Assembly (NCBI GenBank): GCA_027320085.1
Contig: DAHVLZ010000023.1
Location: 1 to 32,688, forward strand
DNA: 32,688 nucleotides
Reading direction: 5' to 3'
Source: Pseudomonadota bacterium
GTDB lineage: Bacteria > Pseudomonadota > Gammaproteobacteria > JAKAQQ01
Part shown: positions 2,581 to 18,616 of the stretch, piece by piece
Numbering within the stretch: the first letter of the stretch is position 1
Layout of the letters: the number at the start of each line of letters is the position of its first letter
Position numbers and translations under genes: made by a program
The notes under the pieces: model-generated
Database searches by the model: none
The model's input: only the letters and a program-made list of their open reading frames with translations
Told to the model about the DNA's origin: nothing

Positions 2581-2647
2581 GGGATCGGTCACCGGATCAG
2601 GAGAAGTCCAGGTTGGGAGAAGTGGGTTGAGGCATGCTTTCCAAGCG

Positions 2648-5116
2648 TTACTCCGCATGGAGAAGGAGGCTCGGCTCCACCCGGCCGACCCGGCGGGTCG
2701 GTACCCAGGTGGCCAAGAGCAGGACCAGGGCGAAAACCACGAGCAGGATCGCCATGCTGGCGCCGTCATCCGGCGCGACCCCGTAGAGGAGAGCGGAGAA
2801 GAGATGGCCCACGAGGAGCATGCCAACCAATCCGGGCACCAGGCCCATGAGGAAGAGCCGGATGGATTCTCCAAGCACGAGACGGATCAAGGCGGGACGG
2901 TCCGCACCGAGTGCGGCCCGGATGCCGAACTCGCGGAGCCTCCGGCTCACCAGGTAGCTTTGAACCCCGTAGAGACCGACCGCTGTCAATAGAAGTGATC
3001 CGAAGGCGAACAGGCTCACAAGTCCGAGGAGGGTTTGCCGGGTCCGGAGCCGGCGGTCGAGGCGGCTTTTGAGGGTGCGAAAATGGTAGAAGGGTAGGCT
3101 GGGGAGGATCCGGTGAAGGGTTTGGCCGAGATCCCGCCTCACGGTGGCGGGTGGGAGAGAAGACCGGATCGCGAAGACCCAGCGGGAAAATTGGTACCAG
3201 CCGGAATGGCCGGCGAGCCGAAAAGCTTGCGGGGCATCGAGGTAGACGTTTCCGGTTTCCGGTTGCCGGCCCAGATGCTTGTTGCGGACGGTGGGGACCA
3301 GGCCCACGACCCGGAAACGCAGGGCGGGGTTGTGATTGTTCGGGGTGTTCAGCGTGAAGATCCGTCCGATCGGATCCCGGGCCCCGTAGAGTTGGCGAGC
3401 GGCGAGCCGGTCGATCACGGCCACCCCCGATTTCGAATCGGTGTCCAGGGGACTGAAGAGACGTCCCCGGAGTGGATCCAGCCCCAGGATTTTGAGGAAA
3501 CGGGTGTCGGTCACCCGGATGTAGGCTCCGAGCATCGGGTCATGCGAGTTCCAGGGTTCCGGGAAGAGGGCGTTGACATCGGATCCGCCCAGTCCGAAAG
3601 GCAGTCCGCTCGAGACCCCGGCATCCGCGACTCCCGGGATCTCCTGGACGGCTCTCCTCAGGCGCTCGAGGGTGATCCAGGGATTGGACGGAGTCGAACC
3701 CTTCGCGGCGAGATCAATGTCGAAGGCCATGATGTGCTGGATCCTGAATCCCGGCTTGACGGAGGCCAGGTTGAAGAGGGTGTGGGCCAGAAGCAGGGAT
3801 ACCCCGGCCAGGGTGGTGGCGAGTGCGATCTGGACCGCGACCAGGCCCCGGCGGGCCCGTGCCGCACCCGGGGATCCCCCGCTCCGGGATCCGGCGTCAC
3901 GGAGGCTGAGGCCGGGATCTCTCCTGATTGCGAGAGCCAGGGGTACCAAGGTCATCACCAGGATCGAGCCACAGCAGACGGCCAGGAGCAGGATGAACAA
4001 AACCGGGGCACCCCGGTTGAGGCTCGTCACTTGGGGGAGCACCCGGAGCGACTGGATCCAGCCGAGGAGCCCCTGGGCCAGAAGCCAGCCGGTCAGGGTG
4101 GCCAAGAGGGAGATGGCGGCAGCCTCGAGCGCGTGACGGAGCAGGAAATCCCGGGGGCCAGCCCCGAGGACACTGCGCAGCAGAAGCTCTCCGCGCTGGG
4201 TGATCCCCCGGGCGATGAAGAGATTTCCGAGATTGAACCAGACGAGCAGGAGGAGCAGGAGGGAGGAGATCTCGACGAGTGTGAGCATGACCTCCAGATG
4301 GCCGGTGCGGGAGGCGCGCCAGCCTTCCGCCCGGGCCGAGAAATGACGGAAAAACTGCCGGGCCGGGGGCGGAAAGCGGTGGATGAGACCGGTGGTGAGC
4401 GTACGGATTTCGGTGTCGAGCGTGTCCAGGGATTGGTCCGGGGCCAGCCGCCCGATCATGTGACCCCGGAATGCCGTCAACTGGAAATAATGGTAGTTGT
4501 AGGCAATGAGGGGATAGGGTTTCCAGAAATCGACCCCGCGGACCGGAAACCGGAAACCCCGCGGCATGATCCCGATCACCGTGTAGACGTTCTGGTTGAG
4601 TTCGAGGCTTTGTCCGATCACGTCCGGCCGACCCCCGAAATCATCCCGCCAGAAGCGGTTGCCCAGAACGACGACTTTGGGCTCGCCGCTCTCATCGGCC
4701 CGGTCCCCGAAAACCCGTCCGAGGAGCGGTTTCACCCCGAGTGTCGGAAACAGGGATCCTGTGGTTTCGACTCCGGTGACCCGGATCGCCCGTCCCCCGA
4801 GATCGAGGTTGTAGCCCTTCCGGAGGTAGAAGGCGGATGTGGCCAGGGCCGGTGCCCCGCGCCGGAAGCGGCGGTAGGCCACCTGCGACATGGGATGGGA
4901 CAATCCGGTGTTGCCGGGCATCGTGAGCGAGAGGTTGACCAGCCGGCTGCCCTGGAGGTAAGGAAGGGGTTCTAGGAAGCTGGCATAAAAGATCCACGAG
5001 GCAGCCAGGATCACGCCCATGCCGAGGGCGAGTGTCAGGGTCGCGGTCAGGGTGAAGGGCCACTCCCGGACGAGGCGGGTCAGGGTCTCTCGGCTTTCGT
5101 GGGCGACAGGCTTCAT
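2648..5116 (-). CDS. ABC transporter permease, duplicated MacB_PCD/FtsX (ADOP-like), paralog 2
   Basis: 'TLALGMG...LEPLPY', 'LGVKPLLGRVF', 'VIGIMPRGFRFP', 'GELLLRSVLGA', 'GLYGVQSYLVSRRLREFGIRAALGA'; 822 aa. Confidence 0.92.
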   Translation of the reverse strand: MKPVAHESRETLTRLVREWPFTLTATLTLALGMGVILAASWIFYASFLEPLPYLQGSRLVNLSLTMPGNTGLSHPMSQVAYRRFRRGAPALATSAFYLRKGYNLDLGGRAIRVTGVETTGSLFPTLGVKPLLGRVFGDRADESGEPKVVVLGNRFWRDDFGGRPDVIGQSLELNQNVYTVIGIMPRGFRFPVRGVDFWKPYPLIAYNYHYFQLTAFRGHMIGRLAPDQSLDTLDTEIRTLTTGLIHRFPPPARQFFRHFSARAEGWRASRTGHLEVMLTLVEISSLLLLLLVWFNLGNLFIARGITQRGELLLRSVLGAGPRDFLLRHALEAAAISLLATLTGWLLAQGLLGWIQSLRVLPQVTSLNRGAPVLFILLLAVCCGSILVMTLVPLALAIRRDPGLSLRDAGSRSGGSPGAARARRGLVAVQIALATTLAGVSLLLAHTLFNLASVKPGFRIQHIMAFDIDLAAKGSTPSNPWITLERLRRAVQEIPGVADAGVSSGLPFGLGGSDVNALFPEPWNSHDPMLGAYIRVTDTRFLKILGLDPLRGRLFSPLDTDSKSGVAVIDRLAARQLYGARDPIGRIFTLNTPNNHNPALRFRVVGLVPTVRNKHLGRQPETGNVYLDAPQAFRLAGHSGWYQFSRWVFAIRSSLPPATVRRDLGQTLHRILPSLPFYHFRTLKSRLDRRLRTRQTLLGLVSLFAFGSLLLTAVGLYGVQSYLVSRRLREFGIRAALGADRPALIRLVLGESIRLFLMGLVPGLVGMLLVGHLFSALLYGVAPDDGASMAILLVVFALVLLLATWVPTRRVGRVEPSLLLHAE

Positions 5117-5146
5117 GACAGGACCCTCATGCCAGGGGAGCGGATT

Positions 5147-7600
5147 TCAAGCTGTCCCGGGACGGAGTTCACCCACGAGCCCGGCCCGGAAGCTGTGCCG
5201 GACCGGGATCCAGGAGGCCGCGAGGGTTGTCGAGAGGATGATGAGTATGCCGACCAGGTCGGCCGGGCCGTTGACCTCTCCCACCGCGTAGAGAGCCCCT
5301 GCCAGGAGATGGGCCAGGAGAAGGGACAGGGTGAGACCGATTGCGAGACCCGCGCCCAGCATCCAGGCCGCCTCGCTCATGACCAGGCGGCTGATCGAGG
5401 CGGGAGTGGCGCCCAGGGCCGAACGGATCGCGTACTCCTGGCGGCGATTGAGGCTGTTCTGGGCCGTGAGTGCGTAGATACCGAAGACCGTGAGGAAGAG
5501 TGCCACGAGCCCGAAGGCTCCGGTGATCTCGGCCAGACTCTCGAAAAGCCGGTCGGAAGCGTGAACCATGGCGGTGAGGGAGACGAGATGGCTGATCGCG
5601 GTACCGGGGATCGCTCGTTCGAGTGCGCCTCGGATCCGTTGTTCGAGCTCTGGTGTCACCGCGCGGACATGCAGGATCACATTGCTCGCGTTGCTGGAGT
5701 AGTTTTTCGTCCCCAGGGGGAAATAGATGGTGCCGGCGATGTGCTTCTCCGGCATGGCCTGCCAGGCCACGGAAGAGACCACTCCCACGATCGGGACCGG
5801 GTGTTTCTGACCGATGGTCCGTCCCACGACCCGGGTGTGGTGGAAAAAGCGCCGGGCGAGCTTGGCGCTCAGGATGAAAGCCGGGGCCCCCTGCCGTTCT
5901 TCCGCGATCGAGAAACTCCGGCCGGCCAGAAGCGGGATGCCGAGCGTCTGGAAATACTTCCCTGAGACCGGAACCCAGTGCACATAGAGGGATTCGTGGG
6001 GGGCGCTGGGTGTCCGGATCACGCTGTGTGAGCTCATCAGGACGTTGAAGGGAACCATCATGCCGATGGCAGCCGACCGGACGCCGGGCACGGTCTCAAG
6101 TGCCGTGGCGGCCTCCTTCCAGAAGCGGACGAGACTGAGCTTCTGGGGCCAGATGACCAGGGCTTCCAGCCGGTTTCCCGGGTGGAAGTGGAGGGGGCGA
6201 CTGAGAATCCCCAAAAGGCTTTGGGTGAGGAGCAGGCCGATCATGAGAAGAAAGGTCGCCATGACGATCTGGAGGCTCCCGAATCCCCGCCGCAGCAGGC
6301 GGGCGCCACCGGCGGTTCCATGTGCCCCCGCCTCGTGGATGAGCGGAGCGAGGAGCGATTCGCGCCCGGCATAGACCAGGGCCGCCATGAAAATGCCGCT
6401 CACGAGGAGGAGGGTCCCTGCGGCCGTGGCGAGTGCCGCGCTTCCTCCGAACCGGATCTCAAAGGGGAGGTGGACGACGACCGGACCGGTCAGGGCCGAG
6501 CGGATAAGTCCCTGGAACAGGTCGGTGAGCAGGACTCCGGTGATCATCGCGCCCATGGCAACCAGGAACAGGGTGAGAAGGTATTCTCCGAGCAGCAGAC
6601 GGAAGAGGTCTGGCGTCGATGCGCCCAGTGCGCGGCGGATCGCGAGATCGGTGGCGCGGTGGCGAGCCCGGACCAGTTCCAGGTTGACCGAGTTTGCGGT
6701 TGCGATCACGATCAGGACGAGCGCGATGAGCGCCAGGATCAGGAGGAACTCCGGGTGTCCGCCCAGATAGAGCCTGACCAGGTGGCGATGCAGGCCGATC
6801 GCGTCGATCGTGAATCCATCCCCGATTGCGTGTTGACGGGCTTGGGGCGACATGTGGGCAAGCAGGCGGTTGCGATAGGCGGTGAGCGTCGCATCCAGTT
6901 GGGTGAGCGTCTCGTCTTTGACGAGACGGACAATCATCGTGTGATTGATGTTCTGGTCGTGTAGCTGGGTGGGAGTCAGTTTCCGCGAGAGCCAGAAGTC
7001 CGCCCCGGTATAGAGCGTGTAGAAGGTCTTGGGCATGACGCCCACGATCCGATACCGGGTGCCGGTAAACCTGAAGGTCTGGCCGAGCACGTGGGGTGAG
7101 CCGCCGAACGCGCTTTTCCAGAATCCATAGCCGAGCACGGCCTCGTTGGGTCCACCGGGCCGGCCGGAGGCGGGGGAGAGCCAGTGCCCGAGCTTCGGAG
7201 GCACGCTGAGTGCCCGGAAGAGGGAGGGGGTCATGAGTCCGCCGTAGACCATATGCTTGATGCCGCGGACTGTCGCGAGTCCGCCCGTGATGTCGATCAA
7301 TCCCGCTGCACGAATGTCCGGGTTGCCCGCCACGATTTCATGGTAGGCCTGATAAGACACATCGTTGCCCAAAAGCCCGGTCTTGAGCAGGCGTTCACGG
7401 ATCATGACGAGCCCTTGGGGATGCGGGTAGGGCAGGGGACGCCAGAGGAAGCCGTCCAGCACGGTGAATGCCGCGCCGGCCGATCCCAGGGCGAGTGCCA
7501 GCATCAGGATGGTCGCTGGTGAAAGACGGTGGAAAAAGCCGCCCAGCCGATGGGCGGAGGGGCGGGGCGGGGCGTTCGGCGTGAGGGTGGTTTTTTGCAT
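5147..7600 (-). CDS. ABC transporter permease, duplicated MacB_PCD/FtsX (ADOP-like), paralog 1
   Basis: 'LALALGSAGAAFTVLDGFLWRPLPYP', 'IVGVMP', 'DLAIRRALGA', 'RRQEYAIRSALGA'. Start set at ATG 7600, which follows a GAGGAG RBS just after the ATPase stop. Confidence 0.9.
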   Translation of the reverse strand: MQKTTLTPNAPPRPSAHRLGGFFHRLSPATILMLALALGSAGAAFTVLDGFLWRPLPYPHPQGLVMIRERLLKTGLLGNDVSYQAYHEIVAGNPDIRAAGLIDITGGLATVRGIKHMVYGGLMTPSLFRALSVPPKLGHWLSPASGRPGGPNEAVLGYGFWKSAFGGSPHVLGQTFRFTGTRYRIVGVMPKTFYTLYTGADFWLSRKLTPTQLHDQNINHTMIVRLVKDETLTQLDATLTAYRNRLLAHMSPQARQHAIGDGFTIDAIGLHRHLVRLYLGGHPEFLLILALIALVLIVIATANSVNLELVRARHRATDLAIRRALGASTPDLFRLLLGEYLLTLFLVAMGAMITGVLLTDLFQGLIRSALTGPVVVHLPFEIRFGGSAALATAAGTLLLVSGIFMAALVYAGRESLLAPLIHEAGAHGTAGGARLLRRGFGSLQIVMATFLLMIGLLLTQSLLGILSRPLHFHPGNRLEALVIWPQKLSLVRFWKEAATALETVPGVRSAAIGMMVPFNVLMSSHSVIRTPSAPHESLYVHWVPVSGKYFQTLGIPLLAGRSFSIAEERQGAPAFILSAKLARRFFHHTRVVGRTIGQKHPVPIVGVVSSVAWQAMPEKHIAGTIYFPLGTKNYSSNASNVILHVRAVTPELEQRIRGALERAIPGTAISHLVSLTAMVHASDRLFESLAEITGAFGLVALFLTVFGIYALTAQNSLNRRQEYAIRSALGATPASISRLVMSEAAWMLGAGLAIGLTLSLLLAHLLAGALYAVGEVNGPADLVGILIILSTTLAASWIPVRHSFRAGLVGELRPGTA

Positions 7601-7622
7601 CAGGCGCTCCTCGAGGAAGGGG

Positions 7623-8357
7623 TTAGCGCGTGGTGGCGAGTCCGCCTTCAAAGGCTGCTTCATCCGCGTCGGCGTCATCGACGATCTGTCCATCGATCAG
7701 GCGGATCAGGCGGCGGGCGAAACGGGCATAGTGCGGATCGTGGGTCACCATGAAAATGGTGGCCCCCCGTTCGTGTAGCGCGGCCAGAAGTTCCATGACC
7801 GCCTCTCCGCTCTTGGAGTCGAGATTACCCGTCGGTTCGTCGGCGAGAAGGATCGAGGGTTCACCGACGAGTGCCCGGGCAATGGCCACCCGTTGCTGCT
7901 GACCGCCCGAGAGCTGACCGGGGTAATGGCGGAGCCGGTGACTCATGCCCATCTCGTCGAGGACTGCCCGGACCCGCTCCCGCCGGGTGCCCCGCGGGAT
8001 ACTGCCCCGGTAGATCAGGGGTAGCTCGACGTTTTCCTCGACCGTGAGATCGCCGATCAGGTTGAAGGCCTGGAAGACAAAGCCGATGTGGCGGTTCCGC
8101 ATCCGGGCCCGTTCGCTGGCGTTCAGGGTCCCGACGGGGGTTCCCGAGATCCGGTATTCGCCTCCGCTCGGGGTTTCGAGAAGTCCCAGGATCGAGAGCA
8201 GTGTGGTTTTGCCGCATCCCGAGGGTCCCATGGCGGCAATGTACTCGCCGGACTGGATGCTGAGCTCGATGCCCGTGAGTGCATGGGTCTCGACCTCCTC
8301 CGTCCGGTAGACTTTGGTGAGGCCACGGACGTCGATGACGGGAGTGGTTTCGTTCAT
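7623..8357 (-). CDS. ABC transporter ATP-binding protein (MacB/LolD-type NBD)
   Basis: Walker [10 protein letters not shown]-loop GFVFQAFNL, signature [15 protein letters not shown], Walker [13 protein letters not shown]-loop VTHD; ATGA overlap with the TolC stop. Confidence 0.96.
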
Positions 8358-9883
8358 GACTGATCTCCTGGGGAGTGGAACCTGGGCTGGGTGAAGGGAT
8401 GCAGGGGGGTGAGGAGCGCTTTGCTCTCGGGCAGCCGGTCGAAGAGACGGCTCAACCGGCGTAGGGCCTTGGGAGTGAGGAGTCCTGCTGCGGCCTCCAG
8501 GCTGAGCGCATCATCAATCAGCCGGGCACGAACGGCGGGAAGGTTCGTTTCCGCGCTGAGCAGGGAGAGGCGGGCGTTCACGAGATCGAACTCCGAGCGC
8601 AATCCCGCCTGGACACCAGCCTCGGTGGCCACGACCGCGCGCCGGGCAGCCCGGGCGCTTTCCTCGTAGGCCCGCACGCGCGCCAGATCCGCGTGGAATG
8701 CGCTCAGGGCGTCCACGATCGTGGTCTCGGTCTTGAGGAATGCCCGCACGGCCTGGGCACCCGCCAGACGGGCCTCATCATGGGCCCGATCGATACGGGC
8801 CTGGGTTCCTCCGCCCGCGTAGAAATTCCAGTGCAGGTTGAGCAGGAGGAAATTCTGCTGCGCCGTGTTGGCGGCCGGCGAGGGGAAATCCACCTGGCCC
8901 GGTACGGCATAGCCATAGGTGCCGCCGGTCAGTTGTCGGGTGTGACTCAGTTCCAGCCGGAGGGTGGGGAGATATCCGCCCCGTGCGGCGGATACCGAAG
9001 CACGCGCGGAGCGGGCCTTGAGGCGGGCGGCAAGCACCGTGGGGTTCGCCTCCCGGGCTTCGCGGATCCATGCACGGGTGCTGCGGGGAGGAAGCGGGAT
9101 CGCGGGTAGTCTCCCGGTTCTGGACGGGATCTCCGGGGGAAATGACGGACCGGTGAGTTCCGCGAGCGCCGCATCGGCCTTGCGAAGTTCGTGACGGGCC
9201 GTGATCACCCGGGCTTCGGCACTCGCTTTGGCGGATCGGGCCTCTTCGTAACCGATGATCCCACGGAGTCCCGACTGGTGCCGGTCCCGGGCCTGGCGGG
9301 CCTCGAGTGCGAAGGCGGCCTCGGTCGCCCGGGTTGCCGCGAGCTGTGCCTGGGCGACGCCCACGGCCAGATAGCGGCTGACCAGCGTCTGCATGAGCTT
9401 CATGCGTGTTGCGTCATAGGTCGCGGCGGCAGCCGCCACCCGGGCATTGGCCGCGGCGAGTTTCTGGATGGCTTCCCAGTTGAAGATCGGTTGACTGAGC
9501 GTGACCGTCCAGTAGCTCTGGCTGATGTTTTCCGATTGTTCGACGGTCAGGAGATTGTTGCCGTAGAACTGGGGTCCCGCACTCTGGCCGTTCGTATAGG
9601 CCTGGTTCGCATCCAGGCTGAGCCGGGGCAGGAGCCCCGCGAGTGCGGAGGGATGCCGGGTCCGGGTGGCCGCGAGGCGTGAGCGGGCTTCTCTGAACTG
9701 GGGGTTGTAGATCCGGGCGATCTGCCAGGCGGCCCACAAGGAGCCCGGAGGAGTTTGCAGCTTCTCGGTTTGGGCGTGGGCCCCGGGGTTCAGGGCGAGG
9801 GCCAGGAAAAGTGCGGCGCCGAAGGTTGGGGCGGGAGTCCGGCGCCTTTGGGAATGATGGGAGGAGAGACGGGGCTGCTGCAT
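8354..9883 (-). CDS. TolC-family outer membrane efflux channel
   Basis: Signal peptide ending AHA; two OEP repeats ('ALAGLLPRLSL...LSQPIFNW' and 'ARGGYLPTLRL...LHWNFYAGG'); 'GLRSEFDLVNAR'. Confidence 0.9.
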   Translation of the reverse strand: MQQPRLSSHHSQRRRTPAPTFGAALFLALALNPGAHAQTEKLQTPPGSLWAAWQIARIYNPQFREARSRLAATRTRHPSALAGLLPRLSLDANQAYTNGQSAGPQFYGNNLLTVEQSENISQSYWTVTLSQPIFNWEAIQKLAAANARVAAAAATYDATRMKLMQTLVSRYLAVGVAQAQLAATRATEAAFALEARQARDRHQSGLRGIIGYEEARSAKASAEARVITARHELRKADAALAELTGPSFPPEIPSRTGRLPAIPLPPRSTRAWIREAREANPTVLAARLKARSARASVSAARGGYLPTLRLELSHTRQLTGGTYGYAVPGQVDFPSPAANTAQQNFLLLNLHWNFYAGGGTQARIDRAHDEARLAGAQAVRAFLKTETTIVDALSAFHADLARVRAYEESARAARRAVVATEAGVQAGLRSEFDLVNARLSLLSAETNLPAVRARLIDDALSLEAAAGLLTPKALRRLSRLFDRLPESKALLTPLHPFTQPRFHSPGDQS

Positions 9884-9886
9884 GGA

Positions 9887-11158
9887 TCAGCCATGGATGC
9901 GGATGTGGCGTGCACCCGCGAAACCTGAGGTGTCCGAGACAATGACCCGTTCGCCGGGTGCCAGTCCTTTCAGGATCTGGATCGCATTGCTGGAGGCGCG
10001 TCCGAACCGGACCATGACCGGGATGGCTTCGCGGCCATTGTGTCTCAGCCGGTAGAGCACCATCGTTTTATGGCCGGCGCTGTAGGCCGGCCGCTCGACA
10101 TAGACCGCATCGCTGAGGGTCGTGATCGTGATGATGCCGTTGATGGCGAGGTTCGGACGGGCATCTGCCGGAAGGGGGGGCTTGGGTTCGGCGTCAACCG
10201 TGACGGTTCCACCCTGAACGGAAGGTGAAACGCGGGTCACGACCGCAAGGAGATGCCGTTCCGATCCCGTATCCAGCGCGAGATTGACGCTCTGGCCGAG
10301 GGCCACTTCCGCGGCCTCGCTGGCCGGAACCTCGAGCCGGGCCTTGAGCGCGTGCATGCCGGCGATCTTGGCAATGCCACTGCCGAGAATCACGCGCTGG
10401 CCTTCCTGGACCGCGACACTCTGGACGACTCCGGCCAGTCCGGCCCGGACCTTGAGCGAGGCGAGTTCGTGCTCCTCGCTCCGCCAGGCCGCTTCCAGTG
10501 AATCGATCCGGGCCTTTTGGGCATGGATCTGGGCAGCCTCATTTTTCCGGAAATCGGCAATGCGCTTTTGGGTGAGTTCGACCTCTCGAGCGAGCGAGGC
10601 CGCTGTGAGACGGCTCCTCGTGTACTGGAGGGAACCCACCACCTGTTCGGCCAGGAGTCCCTTTTCCGCCCGGGCCTTGAGCCGGGCCGCTTGCGCTTCG
10701 GATTTGACTTGGGACAAGGTCTCTTCGAGGTTGAGCAGGTGATCGTCCAGGCCCGCCTCTTGGGAGACCAGGGAAGCCTGGGCATTGGCCAGCCGCGCCC
10801 GGGCCTCGATCACCTGGTCGCCGAGATCGGGGTTGGAAAGGACGGCCAGGATGCTTCCGGTTGTGACCCGGTCACCCGGTTCGACCCGGATCTCCTGGAT
10901 CGTGCCGGGTGCCCCCGCGGTCACGACACGGATCTTCCGGGGAACGAGAGTGCCCGGTGCACTGACGGTGACGGAAAAGCGGCCTTTATGGACGGTTGCA
11001 ATCCAGAGGTTGGCTTTCGAGACGCTGGGGCCGGCCGGAGCGAGTCTCAGGACGAAGATCGCACCCAGAAGCAGCACGAGAGCTACGGCCCCCGCCAACC
11101 CCCAGCGCTTGAGTTTCCGCCGCCGTCGTTCGGCCGGGGAGATCGCGATATCGATCAC
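9887..11158 (-). CDS. efflux periplasmic adaptor (MFP, MacA/HlyD-like)
   Basis: Basic N-terminus plus one TM helix, lipoyl half-motifs 'GTIQEIRVEPGDRV' and 'VRAGLAGVV...EGQRV', coiled-coil hairpin, C-terminal 'GLAPGERVIVSD'; GTG start with GGAGG RBS. Confidence 0.9.
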   Translation of the reverse strand: MIDIAISPAERRRRKLKRWGLAGAVALVLLLGAIFVLRLAPAGPSVSKANLWIATVHKGRFSVTVSAPGTLVPRKIRVVTAGAPGTIQEIRVEPGDRVTTGSILAVLSNPDLGDQVIEARARLANAQASLVSQEAGLDDHLLNLEETLSQVKSEAQAARLKARAEKGLLAEQVVGSLQYTRSRLTAASLAREVELTQKRIADFRKNEAAQIHAQKARIDSLEAAWRSEEHELASLKVRAGLAGVVQSVAVQEGQRVILGSGIAKIAGMHALKARLEVPASEAAEVALGQSVNLALDTGSERHLLAVVTRVSPSVQGGTVTVDAEPKPPLPADARPNLAINGIITITTLSDAVYVERPAYSAGHKTMVLYRLRHNGREAIPVMVRFGRASSNAIQILKGLAPGERVIVSDTSGFAGARHIRIHG

Positions 11159-11347: not shown

Positions 11348-12729
11348 ATGAACGGAACCGAACGGGAGCCCGGCCCGCGCCCGGTGCCCACGATCCTGGT
11401 TTCCGACGATCAGGCGGACGTCCGGGAATCTCTCAAACTGCTGCTCGAGGCGGAAGGCTACCGGGTGCAGGCTGCGGCCAACCCGGATGAGGCCCTGGAT
11501 CGTGTCCGCTCGAGCCTTCCCGATGCCGTGATCCTGGACCTCAACTACCGAACGGATACCACCTCGGGCGAGGAAGGTCTCGAACTTTTGGGCCAGCTCC
11601 ATGCCCTGGATCCCGCTTGTCCGATCATCGTGCTGACGGGCTGGGGGACGGCCTCCCTCGCGATCGAGGCCATGCGCCGGGGCGCACAGGATTTTCTCGA
11701 AAAGCCCTGGGACAATACGCGTGTCGTCTCGGTGATCCGGAATCAGCTGACACTCGCGCGGACCCGTCGGGATAACCGGCGTCTGGCTGCTGCAACGCGC
11801 GTGCTGACCGAAACCCCCCCGCCGCTGATCGGCCGTTCCGGGGTCATGCAGCGGGTTCTCGAAGAGGCGGGACGGGTTGCAGCCTCGAATGCCGCGATCC
11901 TGATCACGGGGGAAAGCGGAACCGGAAAGGGGCTCTTGGCGCGCTGGATCCACGAGCGCTCGCCTCGCGCCGATCGGCCCTTTGTCCGGGTCAATCTGGG
12001 CGGACTCGTCGACAGCCTGATCGAAAGCGAGCTCTACGGGCACGTCCGAGGCGCTTTCACGGATGCCCGTAGTGAACGGCTGGGGCGCTTCGAACTGGCC
12101 AACCAGGGCACGCTTTTTCTCGACGAAATCGCAAATCTGTCTCCCGTCTCGCAGGCGTCTCTCCTGCACGCACTCGAGGAAGGCCGGATCGAACGCGTGG
12201 GAAGTTCCACACCCATCCGGGTCGACGTCCGGATTCTCGCGGCGACCAATGTGGATATCCGGAGGGCTGTGGCACAAGGACAGTTTCGCGGAGATCTGCT
12301 CTACCGGCTCAATACGATTGAAGTCACCCTTCCCCCCCTCCGTGAACGGGGCGAGGACATTGAGCTCCTCGCATCGCATTTCTTCGCCGAAGCGGTCCGG
12401 CAGCATGGCAAGTCGCTCCGGGGCATAAGTCCCCGGGCGCTCGCGACGCTTGCCGGATACGACTGGCCGGGCAACGTCCGTGAACTCGGCCATGTCCTCG
12501 AACGGGCCGTCCTCCTGGCTGCCGGCGAATGGATCGAGCCGGCCGACCTTCGCCTCGTGCCGGCGGCCGGGCACGAGATCCCCTCCCTGGAAAACATGAC
12601 CCTGGAGCAGGCGGAGCGCTATCTGGTTTCGCAGGCTCTGGAGCGGAGTCGGGGGGATGCCGAAGCGGCAGCCCGCCAGCTGGGTGTGAGCCGGAGTGCC
12701 CTCTATCGCCGACTTGCGAAGTACCGGCA

Positions 12730-12733
<4 letters not shown>
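11348..12733 (+). CDS. sigma54-dependent response regulator (REC-AAA+-Fis HTH, NtrC family)
   Basis: REC 'ILVSDD...VILDLNY...FLEKPW'; Walker A GESGTGK; 'ESELYGHVRGAFTDA'; Walker B TLFLDEI; WPGNVREL; HTH 'AARQLGVSRSALYRRL'. Confidence 0.96.
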
Positions 12734-14812
<2,079 letters not shown>

Positions 14813-14927
14813 GCGGGATTCGCCAATTTCCCCCTTGTGCTGCGAAGGGTTTAGGAATCCGGTCAAGCCGGACCGGGTCGGTGCCGGCAAACGGATCCTT
14901 ACATCTCCCCACTGACAGGAGGGAAAC

Positions 14928-15377
14928 ATGGCCAAAACGCCATTCATCGGGCAACTGGCGCAGGTTTGCGGGGTCCGGGTCACCACCATCCGTTTTTACG
15001 AACGCCGGGGGCTTTTGCCCAAGCCTCCGCGGGGAGCATCGGGGTATCGTCTGTACGGGGAGGCGGATCTCCGGCGTCTCCGGTTCATCCAGGAAGCCAA
15101 AACTCTGGGATTTTCACTGGGCGAGATTGCCGAGCTCTTGGCATTGCGTGCGGCTTCCGATACGAGCTGTTCCCGCGTCCGGGATCGGGCGATCGGGAAG
15201 ATCGGCGAGGTTGAAAAAAAGATCCGGCAGCTCCAGCATTTCCGAGCAGCGCTTCGACACCTGGTTGCCCAGTGCGAGAGGGGAGGGACCAACGGAGATT
15301 GTCCGATCCTTGAGGCCATGGAGCATGCCGCGGTCACACCTCGCTCCAAAGCGGCCAAGTGCGCCCCCTCCCACTGA
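14928..15377 (+). CDS. merR: MerR-family heavy-metal-responsive regulator, Hg(II)-type cysteine triad
   Basis: HTH 'IGQLAQVCGVRVTTIRFYERRGLL', 'GYRLY', 'LGFSLGEI'. Cys81/Cys116/Cys125 have the same spacing as MerR C82/C117/C126. AGGAGG RBS; divergent from the merA remnant. Metal specificity is inferred. Confidence 0.88.
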   Translation: MAKTPFIGQLAQVCGVRVTTIRFYERRGLLPKPPRGASGYRLYGEADLRRLRFIQEAKTLGFSLGEIAELLALRAASDTSCSRVRDRAIGKIGEVEKKIRQLQHFRAALRHLVAQCERGGTNGDCPILEAMEHAAVTPRSKAAKCAPSH

Positions 15378-15440
15378 CCGTCTGCTTCTCGGATAGGGAT
15401 GCGATCTGCGGGAGGCGCCGACCCGGAGAGGAGGCAGCAC

Positions 15441-15472
15441 TTGACCCGGTACCATGGTGAAAGGTTTAGAGT
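15441..15472 (+). promoter_or_regulatory. MerR-type promoter/operator 2 (towards methyltransferase operon)
   Basis: TTGACC-20 bp-TAGAGT with dyad ACCCGGTACC-AT-GGTGAAAGGT; it shares the half-site ACCCGGTWCC with promoter 1. Confidence 0.8.
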
Positions 15473-15535
15473 GGGTTCGAAAGTGGCCTGTTCTTGGAGA
15501 ACGCGCATGAGCCCTCAAGGGACGAGATCATCGAG

Positions 15536-16198
15536 ATGAGCCCGGAAAACGGGACCGGTCGCAGGAATCACTGGGAAGACGTGTACCGGAAGAAGCCGGA
15601 GAAGTCCCGGAGCTGGTTCCAGGCCTGTCCCGAGGTTTCACTTGATTTACTGGAAAATCAGCAGATTGGGAAAAACGAGGCCGTGATCGATATCGGCGGG
15701 GGTGACTCGCGACTGGTGGACCATCTTCTGGAGAGGGGGTACACCAACGTCTCGGTCCTCGACATTGCGGAAAGTGCCCTTGAGGCGGCAGGGGCGCGTT
15801 TGGGCCCCCGCCTCTCGGATCAGGTGCGGTGGATCGTGGCGGACGTGACCGAGTGGAGACCGGAGGGCCGCTACCGGGTATGGCATGATCGGGCCGTTTT
15901 CCATTTTTTGACTGATCCGGCTGACCAGACGATCTATCTCCGCAAGCTGGAGGAGGCCCTCGTCCCCAAGGCCATCGTCCTCATCGCGACCTTTAGCCTG
16001 GAAGGTCCCGAGCGTTGTAGCGGTCTTCAGGTGCAACGCTACTCACCGGAATCATTGGCTCGCCGGATGGGTCCCCGGTTCCGGATCCGGGATTTCCGCA
16101 AGGAGGATCACCAGACCCCTTCTGGTGTCCTCCAGCATTTCCAGTATTCGCTTTTTGAGTATGACCCGGGTTCCCCTTCCACTGGAGATCAAACATGA
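15536..16198 (+). CDS. class I SAM-dependent methyltransferase (TPMT/TehB-like fold)
   Basis: 'HWEDVY', motif I 'VIDIGGGDS', motif II 'VLDIA', 'VADV', 'WHDRAVFHFL', 'GPERCSGL'. Start at ATG 15536 preferred; TTG 15494 is possible. Confidence 0.88.
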   Translation: MSPENGTGRRNHWEDVYRKKPEKSRSWFQACPEVSLDLLENQQIGKNEAVIDIGGGDSRLVDHLLERGYTNVSVLDIAESALEAAGARLGPRLSDQVRWIVADVTEWRPEGRYRVWHDRAVFHFLTDPADQTIYLRKLEEALVPKAIVLIATFSLEGPERCSGLQVQRYSPESLARRMGPRFRIRDFRKEDHQTPSGVLQHFQYSLFEYDPGSPSTGDQT

Positions 16199-16734
16199 TG
16201 CCTGCGCGCCATTTGTGGTTTCGAGTTCTATTGGCAGGAGTGCTCCTGTCCCCGATTGATCCCTTCGCTTTTGCCCACGGCCACCCCCAGGCGGGAACGC
16301 GCGTGCCGGATGCGGTATTCTTGACCGGAGGACGGCGGGTCTCCCTGGCTGCCTATCATGGCAAGAAAGTGATGCTCTGGCTGTTTTCGACCTGGTGCCC
16401 GAGTTGCCGGGCCGGACTTGAAACGCTCCCTCGAGACCAAAAACGCTTTCTCGCCGGGCATCTCCACCTGATCATCCTTGAAAACTACAAAAATGGGGGC
16501 TACCCGGGTCCCTCACTGAAAAAGATGAGGGATCGGTACGCGAAAGGAATCCGGGGGGTCTCAAACTGGACCTTCGGCCATGCCACTCGGGGTCTGGCCG
16601 CGCTCTACAATCCCCAGTCCTACCCGGATATTTTCTACCTGATCCGCCGGGATGGAATCATCCAGACCGTGGAGAGTGCTCCGACGGCACATCTCGCCAC
16701 TGTCCTGCATTTTGCCAAGGGCAGGAGTCCATGA
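16195..16734 (+). CDS. exported thioredoxin-fold (TlpA/redoxin-like) protein with WCPSC
   Basis: Signal-like N-terminus ending AFA, 'VSLAAYHGKKVMLWLFSTWCPSC', cis-Pro-like 'YPDIFYLIRRDGII'; GGAG RBS and ATGA overlaps at both ends. Confidence 0.8.
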   Translation: MMPARHLWFRVLLAGVLLSPIDPFAFAHGHPQAGTRVPDAVFLTGGRRVSLAAYHGKKVMLWLFSTWCPSCRAGLETLPRDQKRFLAGHLHLIILENYKNGGYPGPSLKKMRDRYAKGIRGVSNWTFGHATRGLAALYNPQSYPDIFYLIRRDGIIQTVESAPTAHLATVLHFAKGRSP

Positions 16735-17279
16735 GAAACCCGGTGAGAAACCTGCTCCCGGCACTCCGCGAGGTTTTTTTCAATCGGGCGGCATGGGTGA
16801 CCGCAGGTGTGAGTTTCGTGTTTTTTCTCTCGGTCTACCTCCTCACCCTGCCTGCGACCTTCACCGGCGGGATGATCGGATTCCGGGCGCTCGGGTTCCT
16901 GACTCCGGCACTCATCGGCTGGTCGCTTTTTCTGGCTTTCCTCTTGGGTCTCCTGGTTCCCATGACCGTCTATCTCTTGAGGCGTGGATACAGGGCCCGT
17001 GGCGCGACCGGAACGGCGGCCGGTGGAATCGTCATCAGCCTGCTTGCTCCCTTGCTCTGCTGCTCCCCGATTCTCCCGATCACCGTCAGTTTCCTGACGG
17101 GATGGATTCCGCTTCTGGCCGGAGGCGCCGGTGGATTCGTGCAGGGCTTTCTTGCGACTCATGAGAGTCTCATTTTTTCGATCACGGCCCTGATCCTTCT
17201 GGGCGCCATCTTGTGGGATGCCCGTGAAATCACCCGGGGTGTCTGCTGTGCGGTCCCGGCCGGATCGGGGGGGGGTTGA
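16731..17279 (+). CDS. 4-TM membrane protein with two CC pairs (C-terminal half MerF/MerT-like)
   Basis: Four hydrophobic segments; 'APLLCCSPILP' in TM3 and 'RGVCCAVP' after TM4; GGAG RBS and ATGA overlap. Confidence 0.75.
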   Translation: MRNPVRNLLPALREVFFNRAAWVTAGVSFVFFLSVYLLTLPATFTGGMIGFRALGFLTPALIGWSLFLAFLLGLLVPMTVYLLRRGYRARGATGTAAGGIVISLLAPLLCCSPILPITVSFLTGWIPLLAGGAGGFVQGFLATHESLIFSITALILLGAILWDAREITRGVCCAVPAGSGGG

Positions 17280-17336
17280 TCACCCGGTTCGGCTTTGGGC
17301 CCGATTTTTCATGCTTTGTTTGAGGAGGTGCTTGTT

Positions 17337-17705
17337 ATGAATAGATTGCTTCTTCCTTCTGCACGCGCTGCAACAGCCCGCCTTTTCGCGGTTCTGTTTC
17401 TGGCTGGGGCGTTGATTGTGCCCTCTGTGGCAGGGGCCCAGGTCCCGGGTGGTCTTCCAAAGGCCACCGTTCGCGCACACCGAAAAATGAAGATGCCGGC
17501 AGACATGATGCAGATGATGAAAAACGTGACATGGGTCAAAAGTGTGCAGGAAGCGCTTAATGACCACGGCGCGCATTTGCGGGTTGATGGCCTGTGTGGA
17601 ATGCGGACGGTGAAAGCAATTCGTCGCTTCCAGAAGAGCCACGGTCTCAAGGTCACCGGCATGCCCGATCCCGCCACCCTGAAGGCGCTGGGGTTGGGCC
17701 ACTGA
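17337..17705 (+). CDS. secreted peptidoglycan-binding domain protein with Met-rich linker
   Basis: GAGGAGG RBS before ATG 17337; signal peptide ending AGA; PG_binding_1-like 'VKSVQEALN..G...VDGLCG.RT..AIRRFQKSHGL.VTG..D..T..AL'; linker HRKMKMPADMMQMMK. Confidence 0.82.
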   Translation: MNRLLLPSARAATARLFAVLFLAGALIVPSVAGAQVPGGLPKATVRAHRKMKMPADMMQMMKNVTWVKSVQEALNDHGAHLRVDGLCGMRTVKAIRRFQKSHGLKVTGMPDPATLKALGLGH

Positions 17706-17713
17706 GAAGATGA

Positions 17714-17746
17714 GCCGGGGGCCGCGTTCAGTACCCGGTCCCCGGC
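17714..17746 (+). terminator. GC-rich hairpin closing the operon (no U-tract)
   Basis: GCCGGGGGCCG / CGGTCCCCGGC forms an 11-bp stem (one G-U) with an 11-nt loop, 8 nt after the stop. Confidence 0.35.
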
Positions 17747-17895
17747 CTGAGGGACGAGAAGGGTTTCCGGAAAACGGGATGCGCGACGGTGGATTCCCAT
17801 CGCCGTTTACAATGTGTGACGACCTTCAACGATGCACAGCATCTCGAGATGTGTCGCTTGTGGCCTCGCCTTCATTCAAATTCCCCGAGCCTGGT

Positions 17896-18324
17896 TCAGA
17901 TGCCGAGGATGGGAAGATCACGCAGCGCTGAAAAGTCACGGTCATGAGTGACCAGCGCATCCGCGCCGATAGCCAGCGCGCTGGCGGCCAGGACTGCATC
18001 CGCCAGTTTCATTTTCGACGTGGCGCGGAGCCTGGCGGCGCTCTCGGCAAGGTCGGCATCGAGGTCTACGACGAACCAGGTTCGAAGTGTGCTTCGATAG
18101 CGCTCCGTTAGCTCCTCGTTCCGGGCGCATAAGGGTCCGGCGAGCACCTCCGCGATCGTCATGGTCGTGACTGCAAAGCGCGCAAGGCCCTTGTCGTGAG
18201 CTGCAAACACCGGTTTGAAAGCGGGGGCGAGTTCCGGATGGTCCTCGAGGACGTAGATGATCGGCGCCGAGTCGATCAGCAGGAGCGGGTTCTCCGGCAG
18301 TCCCTCCAGGCTCACCTGTTCCAT
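17896..18324 (-). CDS. PIN-domain (VapC-like) toxin
   Basis: Acidic PIN residues in 'LLIDSAPII', 'TIAEVL', 'LADAVLAASA', 'LVTHDRDF'; 13-bp overlap with the antitoxin. Confidence 0.9.
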   Translation of the reverse strand: MEQVSLEGLPENPLLLIDSAPIIYVLEDHPELAPAFKPVFAAHDKGLARFAVTTMTIAEVLAGPLCARNEELTERYRSTLRTWFVVDLDADLAESAARLRATSKMKLADAVLAASALAIGADALVTHDRDFSALRDLPILGI

Positions 18325-18566
18325 TCGTTTCTCAGGCGACGCAGGGTTGTCCGGCTGTCACGGCCATAGAGCCCATGTCCGCTGCCGGCCAGGGGCAGCA
18401 GCGAGCGCTGTGCACTCGCCTCGGTCTGTGCTGAGATCGGCGCAAGTATGGCGATCGGCCGGCCGTGCCGGGTGATGATCGTTTGCCGACCGTGCTGCGC
18501 AGCGGTGAGCAGATCGGGTAGTTGACTGCGCGCTTCCTCGGCGCCTTTCCGTATCGGTTTCGTCAT
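18312..18566 (-). CDS. Phd/YefM-family antitoxin
   Basis: 'EEARSQLPDLLTAAQHGRQTIITRHGRPIAIL'; GGAG RBS; directly upstream of the PIN gene. Confidence 0.9.
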   Translation of the reverse strand: MTKPIRKGAEEARSQLPDLLTAAQHGRQTIITRHGRPIAILAPISAQTEASAQRSLLPLAGSGHGLYGRDSRTTLRRLRNEWNR

Positions 18567-18587
18567 AGTGATCTCCAGAACCCATAA

Positions 18588-18616
18588 AGCGTACAGACTG
18601 TACGGTTCTGTGTCAA
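18588..18616 (-). promoter_or_regulatory. sigma70 promoter with overlapping palindromic operator for the TA operon
   Basis: TTGACA-17 bp-TACGCT; perfect palindrome CGTACAG-A-CTGTACG at 18590-18604 overlaps the -10. Confidence 0.72.

Follow-up and report, generated by a model that had tools for sequence, protein, structure and literature searches.

The DNA analysed here, called the window throughout, is a stretch of 32,688 nucleotides (positions 1-32,688) from contig DAHVLZ010000023.1 of a gammaproteobacterial assembly (GCA_027320085.1). Near its middle, next to a gene for a MerR-type regulator and a broken merA, lie four genes on the same strand, which encode an S-adenosylmethionine (SAM) methyltransferase, an exported thioredoxin-fold protein with a CxxC motif (Trx), a four-helix membrane protein (Mem), and a Met-rich exported protein with a peptidoglycan-binding (PG) domain. 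The locus raises the question of which of these genes belong together and for which metal. An initial annotation of the window had taken all four for a single candidate metal-handling system working without MerA. In the comparison with related loci, the conserved unit appears to be the Trx-Mem pair and not the four genes, and we lean, with a little more than even confidence, towards reading this pair as an undescribed module for Hg(II) capture and uptake, analogous to MerP/MerT, in a variant mer locus.

Conservation of the Trx-Mem pair

The two genes of the window, which share an ATGA overlap at 16731-16734, are the following:

16195-16734, + strand: Trx, exported thioredoxin-fold CxxC protein of 179 aa (Pfam Redoxin, signal peptide)
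16731-17279, + strand: Mem, four-helix membrane protein of 182 aa (no family in Pfam or NCBIfam)

One genome per species was scanned, 185,579 species in all, which gave 56 Mem loci from other species (designated L001 and so on); the proteins of the window then served as tblastn queries for the neighbouring genes. In 51 of the 56 loci Trx immediately precedes Mem, and in 28 of these 51 its stop overlaps a possible Mem start by 4 nt. Among the five exceptions, L029 and L054 are contig ends, L042 has a Mem match that is only partial and next to a gene for a transposase, and L035 and L055 are genuinely without Trx. The methyltransferase accompanies the pair in 2/56 loci (L001, L011), and the PG gene in 9/56 (L001, L004-L007, L009-L012), all of them in the clade nearest to the window. 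These frequencies speak against the proposal that the four genes form one system. The co-occurrence with merR and merA that the initial annotation had suggested as a check was found for the pair, which has merA in 35/56 loci and MerR-family genes in 36/56, whereas the four-gene set is not conserved.

The Mem family comprises 169 representatives (E <= 0.001 among 1.84 billion proteins), and none of its 41 clusters at 90% identity is named. The initial annotation had not recognised the gene set as a named system, and we likewise found no name for the pair in Pfam, NCBIfam, RefSeq annotation or the full-text literature; nor was a description of it found in that literature, with subscription journals and supplements lying outside the scope of the search. 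The pair appears to be undescribed.

The mercury context of the pair

The open reading frames (ORFs) that match the merA remnant of the window number 39, in 38 loci. In 35 of the 56 loci, including L001 and L011, a merA ORF ends in the C-terminal CC signature of MerA and is intact; 20 of these 35 ORFs also have the N-terminal GMTCxxC domain. The four matching ORFs without the CC signature (L025, the second ORF of L026, L054 and L055) are other flavoprotein reductases. Three gene orders were distinguished. In the first, that of the window, merA diverges from merR-(methyltransferase)-Trx-Mem-(PG gene); in the second, found in Acidocella, Acidiphilium, Methylacidimicrobium and many metagenome-assembled genomes, merR diverges from merA-Trx-Mem; and the third is (ArsR)-Trx-Mem-(small gene)-merA. 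In the 35 merA loci, merA is usually encoded on the strand of the pair, as merA-Trx-Mem or Trx-Mem-(x)-merA.

In the ArsR-Trx-Mem-x-merA loci, "x" encodes a protein of about 190 aa with no Pfam family, whose four copies (L032:6485-7060, L043:6525-7106, L053:1258-1833 and L050:851-1378) are 42-49% identical to one another. The L032 copy, the one inspected, ends in a CC pair, and "x" may be a further mercury-handling component. Genes for the small membrane protein YnfA/UPF0060 were also observed near the pair in three loci (L038:4311-4670, L042:5833-6198 and L049:1463-1966).

Known Hg(II) transporters near the pair were sought by Pfam scans of 266 flanking ORFs and by tblastn with the matches so obtained. 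Neither MerT, MerC or MerF nor a separate HMA (MerP-like) gene was detected in 25 of the 35 merA loci, and no separate HMA gene adjoining the pair was seen among the flanking ORFs. The pair is thus the only candidate uptake function detected in these 25 loci. The merA loci that hold it include transposon- or plasmid-borne operons of cultured acidophiles and a haloarchaeal plasmid. A plasmid of Acidiphilium multivorum carries, in order, a Tn3 transposase, an HTH regulator, merA and the pair, with no annotated mer transporter; from its gene content, it appears to be a mobile mer operon in which the pair would be the sole candidate for a transport function. The copies of the pair on plasmids of A. 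multivorum and Acidithiobacillus ferrooxidans, located directly after merA, are 98% identical to the Acidocella copy (L023). On a plasmid of Halobacterium zhouii (L093), merB and merA adjoin ArsR, followed by a fusion of a Trx domain with DUF3105 and then by Mem. The middle part of the fusion (L093 3662-4987) belongs to the Trx family, as judged by TWCPSC, NAGY.GPS and RPDIFWLI, and both the pairing and its mercury context therefore extend over the two prokaryotic domains. The fusion also has an N-terminal Cys/His-rich stretch besides its C-terminal DUF3105, which links DUF3105 to mercury loci.

The mer operons with the pair come from many acidophilic microbes. The initial annotation had left the metal entirely open, whereas the context described here points to Hg(II).

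The two proteins and a putative Hg(II) relay

The Cys and Met motifs reported in the initial annotation are all present: ERCSG in the methyltransferase, WCPSC in Trx, LLCCSP and VCCAV in Mem, and MKMPADMMQMM in the PG protein. MerT, MerC and MerF have a CC pair in a membrane helix and a cytoplasmic Cys pair, and MerP has a CxxC. None of the four operon proteins matched an HMA domain with GMTCxxC, the MerP type, in Pfam.

Trx reaches 28.6 bits on Pfam Redoxin (cut-off 26.6) and bears the motif TWCPSC. Its AlphaFold2 model has a thioredoxin fold with a predicted local distance difference test score (pLDDT) of 89.6, Foldseek matches it to ResA/DsbE at E 3e-9 (ResA with probability 1.0), and its profile matches in the PDB are TlpA, ResA, Etrx and DsbE. 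Invariant in 33 Trx sequences are T-W-C-x-S-C, the Tyr and Gly of an NGGY.G loop, one Asp, one Pro and one Phe. About a third of the rows of this alignment have Val or Ile at the residue before strand 145-150, which, from the secondary structure of the model, is presumably where thioredoxins have their cis-proline.

Mem has the motifs PLLCCSP in helix 3, QGFLATHE in an outer loop and VCCAV at the C-terminus. Its AlphaFold2 model (pLDDT 77.4) consists of four long helices, the third of which is broken at CCSP. In 22 Mem sequences the invariant residues are those of an LPATFTGG type in the first outer loop and Q-G-F...H-E in the second, together with PLLCC[ST]P in helix 3 and, from the C-terminal pair, the last Cys. 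Arginines number four at the N-terminus, four in loop 2 and two at the C-terminus, compared with one and none in the outer loops; because the positive charges cluster in this way, both ends, and with them the C-terminal CC, are probably cytoplasmic. Mem would thus combine a vicinal Cys pair with a Pro in helix 3 and a second pair on the cytoplasmic side. Among the 124 full-length representatives of the wider family, 94 have CC[STAG]P and only 23 have the C-terminal CC, so that the second pair seems to mark the mer-linked subfamily.

No Pfam family was found for Mem at E up to 10, with 22 members scanned, and no PDB fold matches its model at E <= 0.001 (best 0.9). Compared by hhalign with MerF-like, MerC and MerT sequences taken from the Mem loci themselves, Mem has no detectable homology to them (probabilities 3.5%, 8.9% and 0.5%, respectively); the alignments, which are not significant, place the CC..P of Mem on the CC..P of MerT and its GFL..E on a stretch of MerC. 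The "MerF-like transporter" of the initial annotation is consequently apt as an analogy of motifs and not as a statement of homology, and the likeness of Mem to MerT, MerC and MerF seems to be one of motif logic. A hint of a Mem-HMA fusion in the ESM Atlas, where the nearest named cluster is HMA (score 0.75; other clusters unnamed), was unsupported: Pfam scans of 18 longer Mem-family representatives gave no mer-related domain and a single sub-threshold match, to an unrelated family. The predicted complex of Mem with mature Trx (score 0.13, mark 0.32) weighs neither for nor against binding.

Because these parts follow the scheme of MerP/MerT with unrelated folds, namely a dithiol that is exported, vicinal dithiols in the membrane and in the cytoplasm, and MerA, we favour the reading of the pair as an Hg(II) relay. 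Exported Trx would bind Hg(II) by its CxxC in the periplasm, in the role of MerP and with an unrelated fold, and would pass it to the vicinal CC in helix 3 of Mem; from there it would move to the cytoplasmic C-terminal CC of Mem, and on to the N-terminal domain or the C-terminal CC of MerA for reduction to Hg(0). The gene linkage, the Cys conservation, the Trx fold and the promoter type described below are what the analysis establishes, and all of the transfer steps are inferred from them.

The structural class of Trx brings in a different explanation, the repair of envelope thiols. Trx would here be a TlpA/ResA-type reductase and Mem an electron conduit like CcdA/DsbD, with no metal transport, and periplasmic cysteines would be kept reduced, or be stripped of Hg, during mercury stress. 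The profile matches to TlpA, ResA, Etrx and DsbE and the ResA/DsbE fold agree with this, reductases of this type usually have as their partner a membrane protein with cysteines in its helices, and the pair is also found away from merA, copper contexts included. The cysteines of Mem, however, form a vicinal CC, as is typical of the Hg(II) ligands of Mer proteins, and not the two separated Cys of CcdA/DsbD, neither of which Mem matches in Pfam at E up to 10. In addition, a Val or Ile at the presumed cis-Pro position would be unusual for an active oxidoreductase, and general repair would not need so tight a linkage to merA. We consider thiol repair unlikely.

Promoters and regulator

The control elements of the window lie on both sides of merR:

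14928-15377, + strand: merR (Pfam MerR_1 at 71.6 bits, MerR-DNA-bind, MerR)
15441-15472, + strand: MerR-type promoter of the operon (-35 TTGACC at 15441-15446, 20-nt spacer, -10 TAGAGT at 15467-15472)
14781-14812, - strand: MerR-type promoter of merA (-35 TTGACT at 14812-14807, 20-nt spacer, -10 TATTCT at 14786-14781)

The over-long spacer of mer promoters (19-20 nt) is thus present in two promoters, 20 nt in each, and is conserved in relatives. The operon promoter, 63 nt beyond the stop of merR, aligns in 7/7 loci of the same gene order (the window, L001, L004, L006, L007, L008 and L011), and because the flanks are unalignable in these loci, the element is evidently more than a chance match. 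The merA promoter is fully kept in the window, L001, L011, L007 and L008, and the L004 and L006 stretches that were compared stop inside the element. Both promoters have the core CTTGAC..TACC..GG....GGTTTA in common; this shared operator-like core suggests that one regulator plausibly controls both, and would therefore switch merA together with the four-gene operon. A standard scan of 14000-18600 gave no ordinary sigma-70 sites with spacers of 16-18 nt. The layout described in the initial annotation, a MerR-type promoter with a 20-bp spacer downstream of merR followed by four intact same-strand genes, the first three joined by ATGA overlaps, is present in full, and its view that MerR controls the operon stands as far as can be judged from sequence, with the promoter kept in all seven loci.

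The best NCBIfam model for the merR product is TIGR02051 (MerR), at 129.5 bits with a cut-off of 150.85, and the ZntR and CueR models score near it. Its cysteines are Cys81, Cys116 and Cys125, with a spacing that we take to be that of the Hg-binding cysteines in the MerR of Tn501 and not that of CueR. The metal specificity of the regulator is likely to be Hg. In the favoured reading, the regulator would act between two long-spacer promoters, one leading to merA and the other to methyltransferase-Trx-Mem-(PG).

The methyltransferase and the peptidoglycan-binding protein

Upstream and downstream of the pair, the operon contains the following features:

15536-16198, + strand: class I SAM methyltransferase of 220 aa (Pfam Methyltransf_25/12/23)
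17283-17301, + strand: weak terminator-like hairpin between Mem and the PG gene (consensus scan)
17337-17705, + strand: Met-rich exported PG_binding_1 protein of 122 aa (Pfam PF01471)

Relatives back the ATG start of the methyltransferase at 15536; a TTG at 15494 is also open. The protein reaches 34.6 bits on Methyltransf_25 (cut-off 27) and overlaps Trx in an ATGA at 16195-16198. In NCBIfam, none of the equivalog models was matched above its cut-off and the listed matches include no model for arsenite or tellurite methyltransferases, and a sequence search of the PDB gave weak matches (best 5ufm, E 3.9e-7) that are uninformative on the substrate. The family has at least 7,838 proteins (E <= 0.001 among 8,000 candidates scored), with HW..VY, WHDRAVFHFL and GPERCSG as invariants, and Cys161 is present in 120/120 homologues; the "RCSG" therefore appears to be a trait of the family, not an adaptation to mer.

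Of 300 other genomes sampled from the phylum, 31 have a homologue of the methyltransferase. At 29 homologue loci, no MerR, MerA or Mem was found within 1.5 kb (0/29), and there was one weak Trx match; the neighbours are heterogeneous and include GST, D-Ala-D-Ala ligase, TauE, EAL, transaldolase, one P-type ATPase and one ArsR. No methyltransferase is present in L004, L006, L007 and L008, the four closest loci that share the promoter. Purifying selection acts on the gene in the three closest genomes, which retain it (omega, the ratio of nonsynonymous to synonymous rates, of 0.25-0.30), and its other carriers, L001 and L011, keep an intact merA. By this distribution the methyltransferase looks like a recent, lineage-specific insertion between the promoter and Trx, a local passenger that would have been recruited from a widespread family and would stand outside the conserved mechanism.

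These data bear on the model of the initial annotation, in which the four genes are a capture-import-modify system without MerA and the methyltransferase modifies the imported metal or metalloid. In its favour, the methyltransferase comes first behind a MerR-type promoter, overlaps Trx, has an invariant Cys and is under purifying selection. Its presence with the pair in only two loci, its absence from four loci with the same promoter, its heterogeneous neighbourhoods without mer genes, the family-wide nature of its Cys, and the intact merA of both relatives that carry it, with a merA loss in the window that is recent and polymorphic (see below), all speak against the model, which we regard as very improbable. 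We give equally little credence to its extended form for the window clade, a MerR-switched four-gene unit without MerA in which a soft metal or metalloid captured at the peptidoglycan by the PG protein would be imported through Trx and Mem, after which the methyltransferase would methylate it or a thiol ligand, as a second, non-reductive detoxification route. What survives of the proposed layout is capture and import, in which Trx and Mem resemble MerP and MerT/MerF; the enzyme role assigned to the methyltransferase is unsupported in both surveys (2/56, 0/29).

The PG gene lies 57 nt behind Mem, and the gap holds the hairpin, which is a hint only, with 8 terminator-like sites found in the region by the consensus scan and 4.2 expected. 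The protein scores 55.9 bits on PG_binding_1 (cut-off 23), and a Met-rich stretch (MKMPADMMQMM in the window) immediately precedes this domain, as it also does in the nine homologues, of which the L005 copy looks degenerate. The gene appears to be a clade-level third member of the module, and its product may be an envelope-anchored soft-metal binder added in the window clade. A conserved Cys in the DG.CG of the PG_binding_1 domain was also observed in 9/10 sequences, the window and 8 of its 9 homologues, with L005 excepted.

The broken merA

The remnant of merA lies next to its promoter:

14059-14766, - strand: merA remnant (NCBIfam PRK13748)

Compared by blastn with L001 and L011, the gene has lost 1,066 bp in an internal deletion with its junction at 14691|14692, which leaves the promoter, the start, about 25 codons and the last third of the gene. 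The remnant covers profile positions 277-465 of 465 in two frames (pieces 14236-14697 and 14133-14228), with a frame change near 14228-14236 that puts the last 32 profile positions in another frame; on PRK13748 it scores 251.4 bits over profile positions 372-533 of 560. The genome to which the window belongs (2.14 Mb in 47 contigs, 96% complete) has a single Mem and no other MerA above the cut-off, and neither MerT nor MerC was found in it, MerF, MerE and MerP not having been searched genome-wide. The genes of the window gave no Pfam match to the known Hg(II) uptake families (merT, merP, merC, merF).

Contigs from four DNA runs of one study (X1-X4), three of them candidates for the source, bridge the deletion junction. 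Run X3 also has contigs that match from position 14692 on and then carry 26 letters which are the same as in the undeleted L011 merA. Since these contigs run into undeleted merA, the deletion is a population polymorphism, with deleted and intact alleles coexisting in the source community, and is probably recent. All five genes, merR and the four of the operon, are under purifying selection (omega 0.11-0.30), and comparisons that include the window give no higher omega than L001 against L011. The initial annotation was right that merA is broken, and the argument it drew from an operon that "stayed intact while merA decayed" carries no weight: because the loss is a single polymorphic deletion and omega is not raised in the window comparisons, intactness beside a dead merA is no evidence for a function independent of MerA.

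Mercury reduction has been lost in the organism of the window. Under the relay model, this strain should be hypersensitive to mercury, and the module would be useless or harmful in it under mercury stress because merA is deleted and no other merA is present.

As a separate observation, synonymous distances (dS) across 14928-17705 of the window are mosaic: merR is nearer to L011 (dS 0.30) than to L001 (0.73), and Mem and the PG gene are nearer to L001 (0.45) than to L011 (1.30). The pattern suggests recombination inside the locus among related strains.

Metal range and evidence against an Hg(II) module

Several findings weigh against the favoured reading. Ten of the 35 merA loci also hold genes for MerC (L020, L026, L035, L041), MerF-like proteins (L010, L034, L036, L038, L052) or MerT (L046), and three further loci (L028, L033, L037) have weak MerT-like tblastn matches that were not counted. 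Twenty-one of the 56 loci have no merA in the fetched DNA, and some of them have genes for Cu-type P-type ATPases, cupredoxins, CopD or CopZ-like proteins as neighbours, so that metals other than Hg may also be handled. The merR product does not reach the cut-off of the NCBIfam MerR model, proteins of the TlpA/ResA type normally act as thiol reductases and not as metal carriers, Mem has no detectable homology to the known transporters, and its C-terminal CC is a minority trait in the wider family. Finally, MerT-family genes lie elsewhere in 4/5 of the genomes with merA-Trx-Mem that were tested. On this last count the pair was rejected as a strict replacement of MerT.

The copper-type neighbours give rise to another explanation, in which the pair and the Met-rich PG protein would handle soft metals more broadly (Cu(I), Ag(I), Au or Cd), with Hg as only one inducer. 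All nine PG homologues have a Met-rich stretch of the MxxMM type, a kind of motif typical of proteins that bind Cu(I)/Ag(I) in the periplasm; HMA P-type ATPases occur in L003, L005, L023 and L051, cupredoxins in L017 and L039, CopD in L044, a multicopper oxidase in L037 and a CopZ-like zinc-ribbon protein in L016; and the ZntR and CueR models give the regulator scores close to that of the MerR model. Against these stand the Hg(II)-specific merA, the dominant neighbour, the merB beside the pair on the haloarchaeal plasmid, and the three cysteines of the regulator, spaced as in Hg-sensing MerR and not as in CueR. We judge a broader soft-metal system improbable, and keep to the Hg(II) module as the favoured reading.

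Genes around the locus

Directly beyond the 3' end of the operon, the window has a toxin-antitoxin pair:

17896-18324, - strand: PIN-domain toxin
18312-18566, - strand: Phd/YefM antitoxin, beside the PIN toxin

A PIN gene is also found beside the Trx-Mem pair in L043 and beside a methyltransferase homologue in L084. The remaining window is ordinary chromosome, with lptD, surA, pdxA and ksgA, a gene for a GGDEF/EAL protein, and a MacB-type efflux system accompanied by a sigma-54 two-component pair. The efflux region (139-11158 on the - strand and 11348-14079 on the + strand) contains three successive large MacB/FtsX-type permease genes, one ABC ATPase, an outer-membrane factor and an HlyD-type adaptor. 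These genes adjoin the sigma-54 response regulator and the histidine kinase, and the 3' end of the kinase gene abuts the merA remnant.

Comparison with known systems

To our knowledge, few Hg(II) uptake proteins have been described, namely MerT/MerP, MerC, MerF, MerE and MerH. Passages of a mercury survey (PMC8261052) and of a geothermal-spring preprint give these uptake names only, and no such pair. Mercury-cycling surveys score genomes by the established names of uptake genes. If the pair transports Hg(II), it would represent a novel family of transporters whose metal receptor has a thioredoxin fold, it would explain how MerA is supplied in the "transporter-less" mer operons of acid-mine organisms, and it would serve as a marker for the annotation of such operons.

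Among the known systems, MerP-MerT of the Tn21/Tn501 type shares with the pair an exported CxxC protein, a small inner-membrane protein with a helix CC and a cytoplasmic Cys pair, and a place in a MerR-controlled operon with merA; hhalign even aligns GG....L....CC..P in the third Mem helix to helix 1 of the L046 MerT, though not significantly. Trx, however, adopts a thioredoxin fold where MerP has that of an HMA domain, Mem, with its four helices, shows no detectable homology to MerT, and the pair usually lies downstream of merA and not upstream. MerF and MerC are, like Mem, small membrane proteins with CC..P in a helix; the MerF-like genes from these loci also encode a C-terminal CC, MerC shares a GFL..E-like stretch, and both can share an operon with other transporters, as is the case for the pair in 10/35 loci. 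They differ in profile, with no significant similarity to Mem (3.5% and 8.9%), and Mem is twice as long as MerF, with the additional invariant outer-loop motifs LPATFTGG and QGFLATHE and with Trx as a partner.

Trx falls into the structural class of TlpA, ResA, CcmG and Etrx, the periplasmic thiol-disulfide reductases with CcdA or DsbD; it is exported or membrane-anchored, and its gene adjoins one for a membrane protein bearing cysteines. It is nevertheless a distinct subfamily, with an invariant TWCxSC, the NGGY.G loop and a presumed cis-Pro that is lost in about a third of its members; its partner is not CcdA/DsbD-like, and its context is merA instead of cytochrome or Msr genes. In RefSeq, the plasmids of A. 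multivorum and A. ferrooxidans have the same two genes, named just "redoxin family protein" and "hypothetical protein", with no mer name. Our best reading of the locus is that of a mer operon with an alternative, unnamed uptake module.

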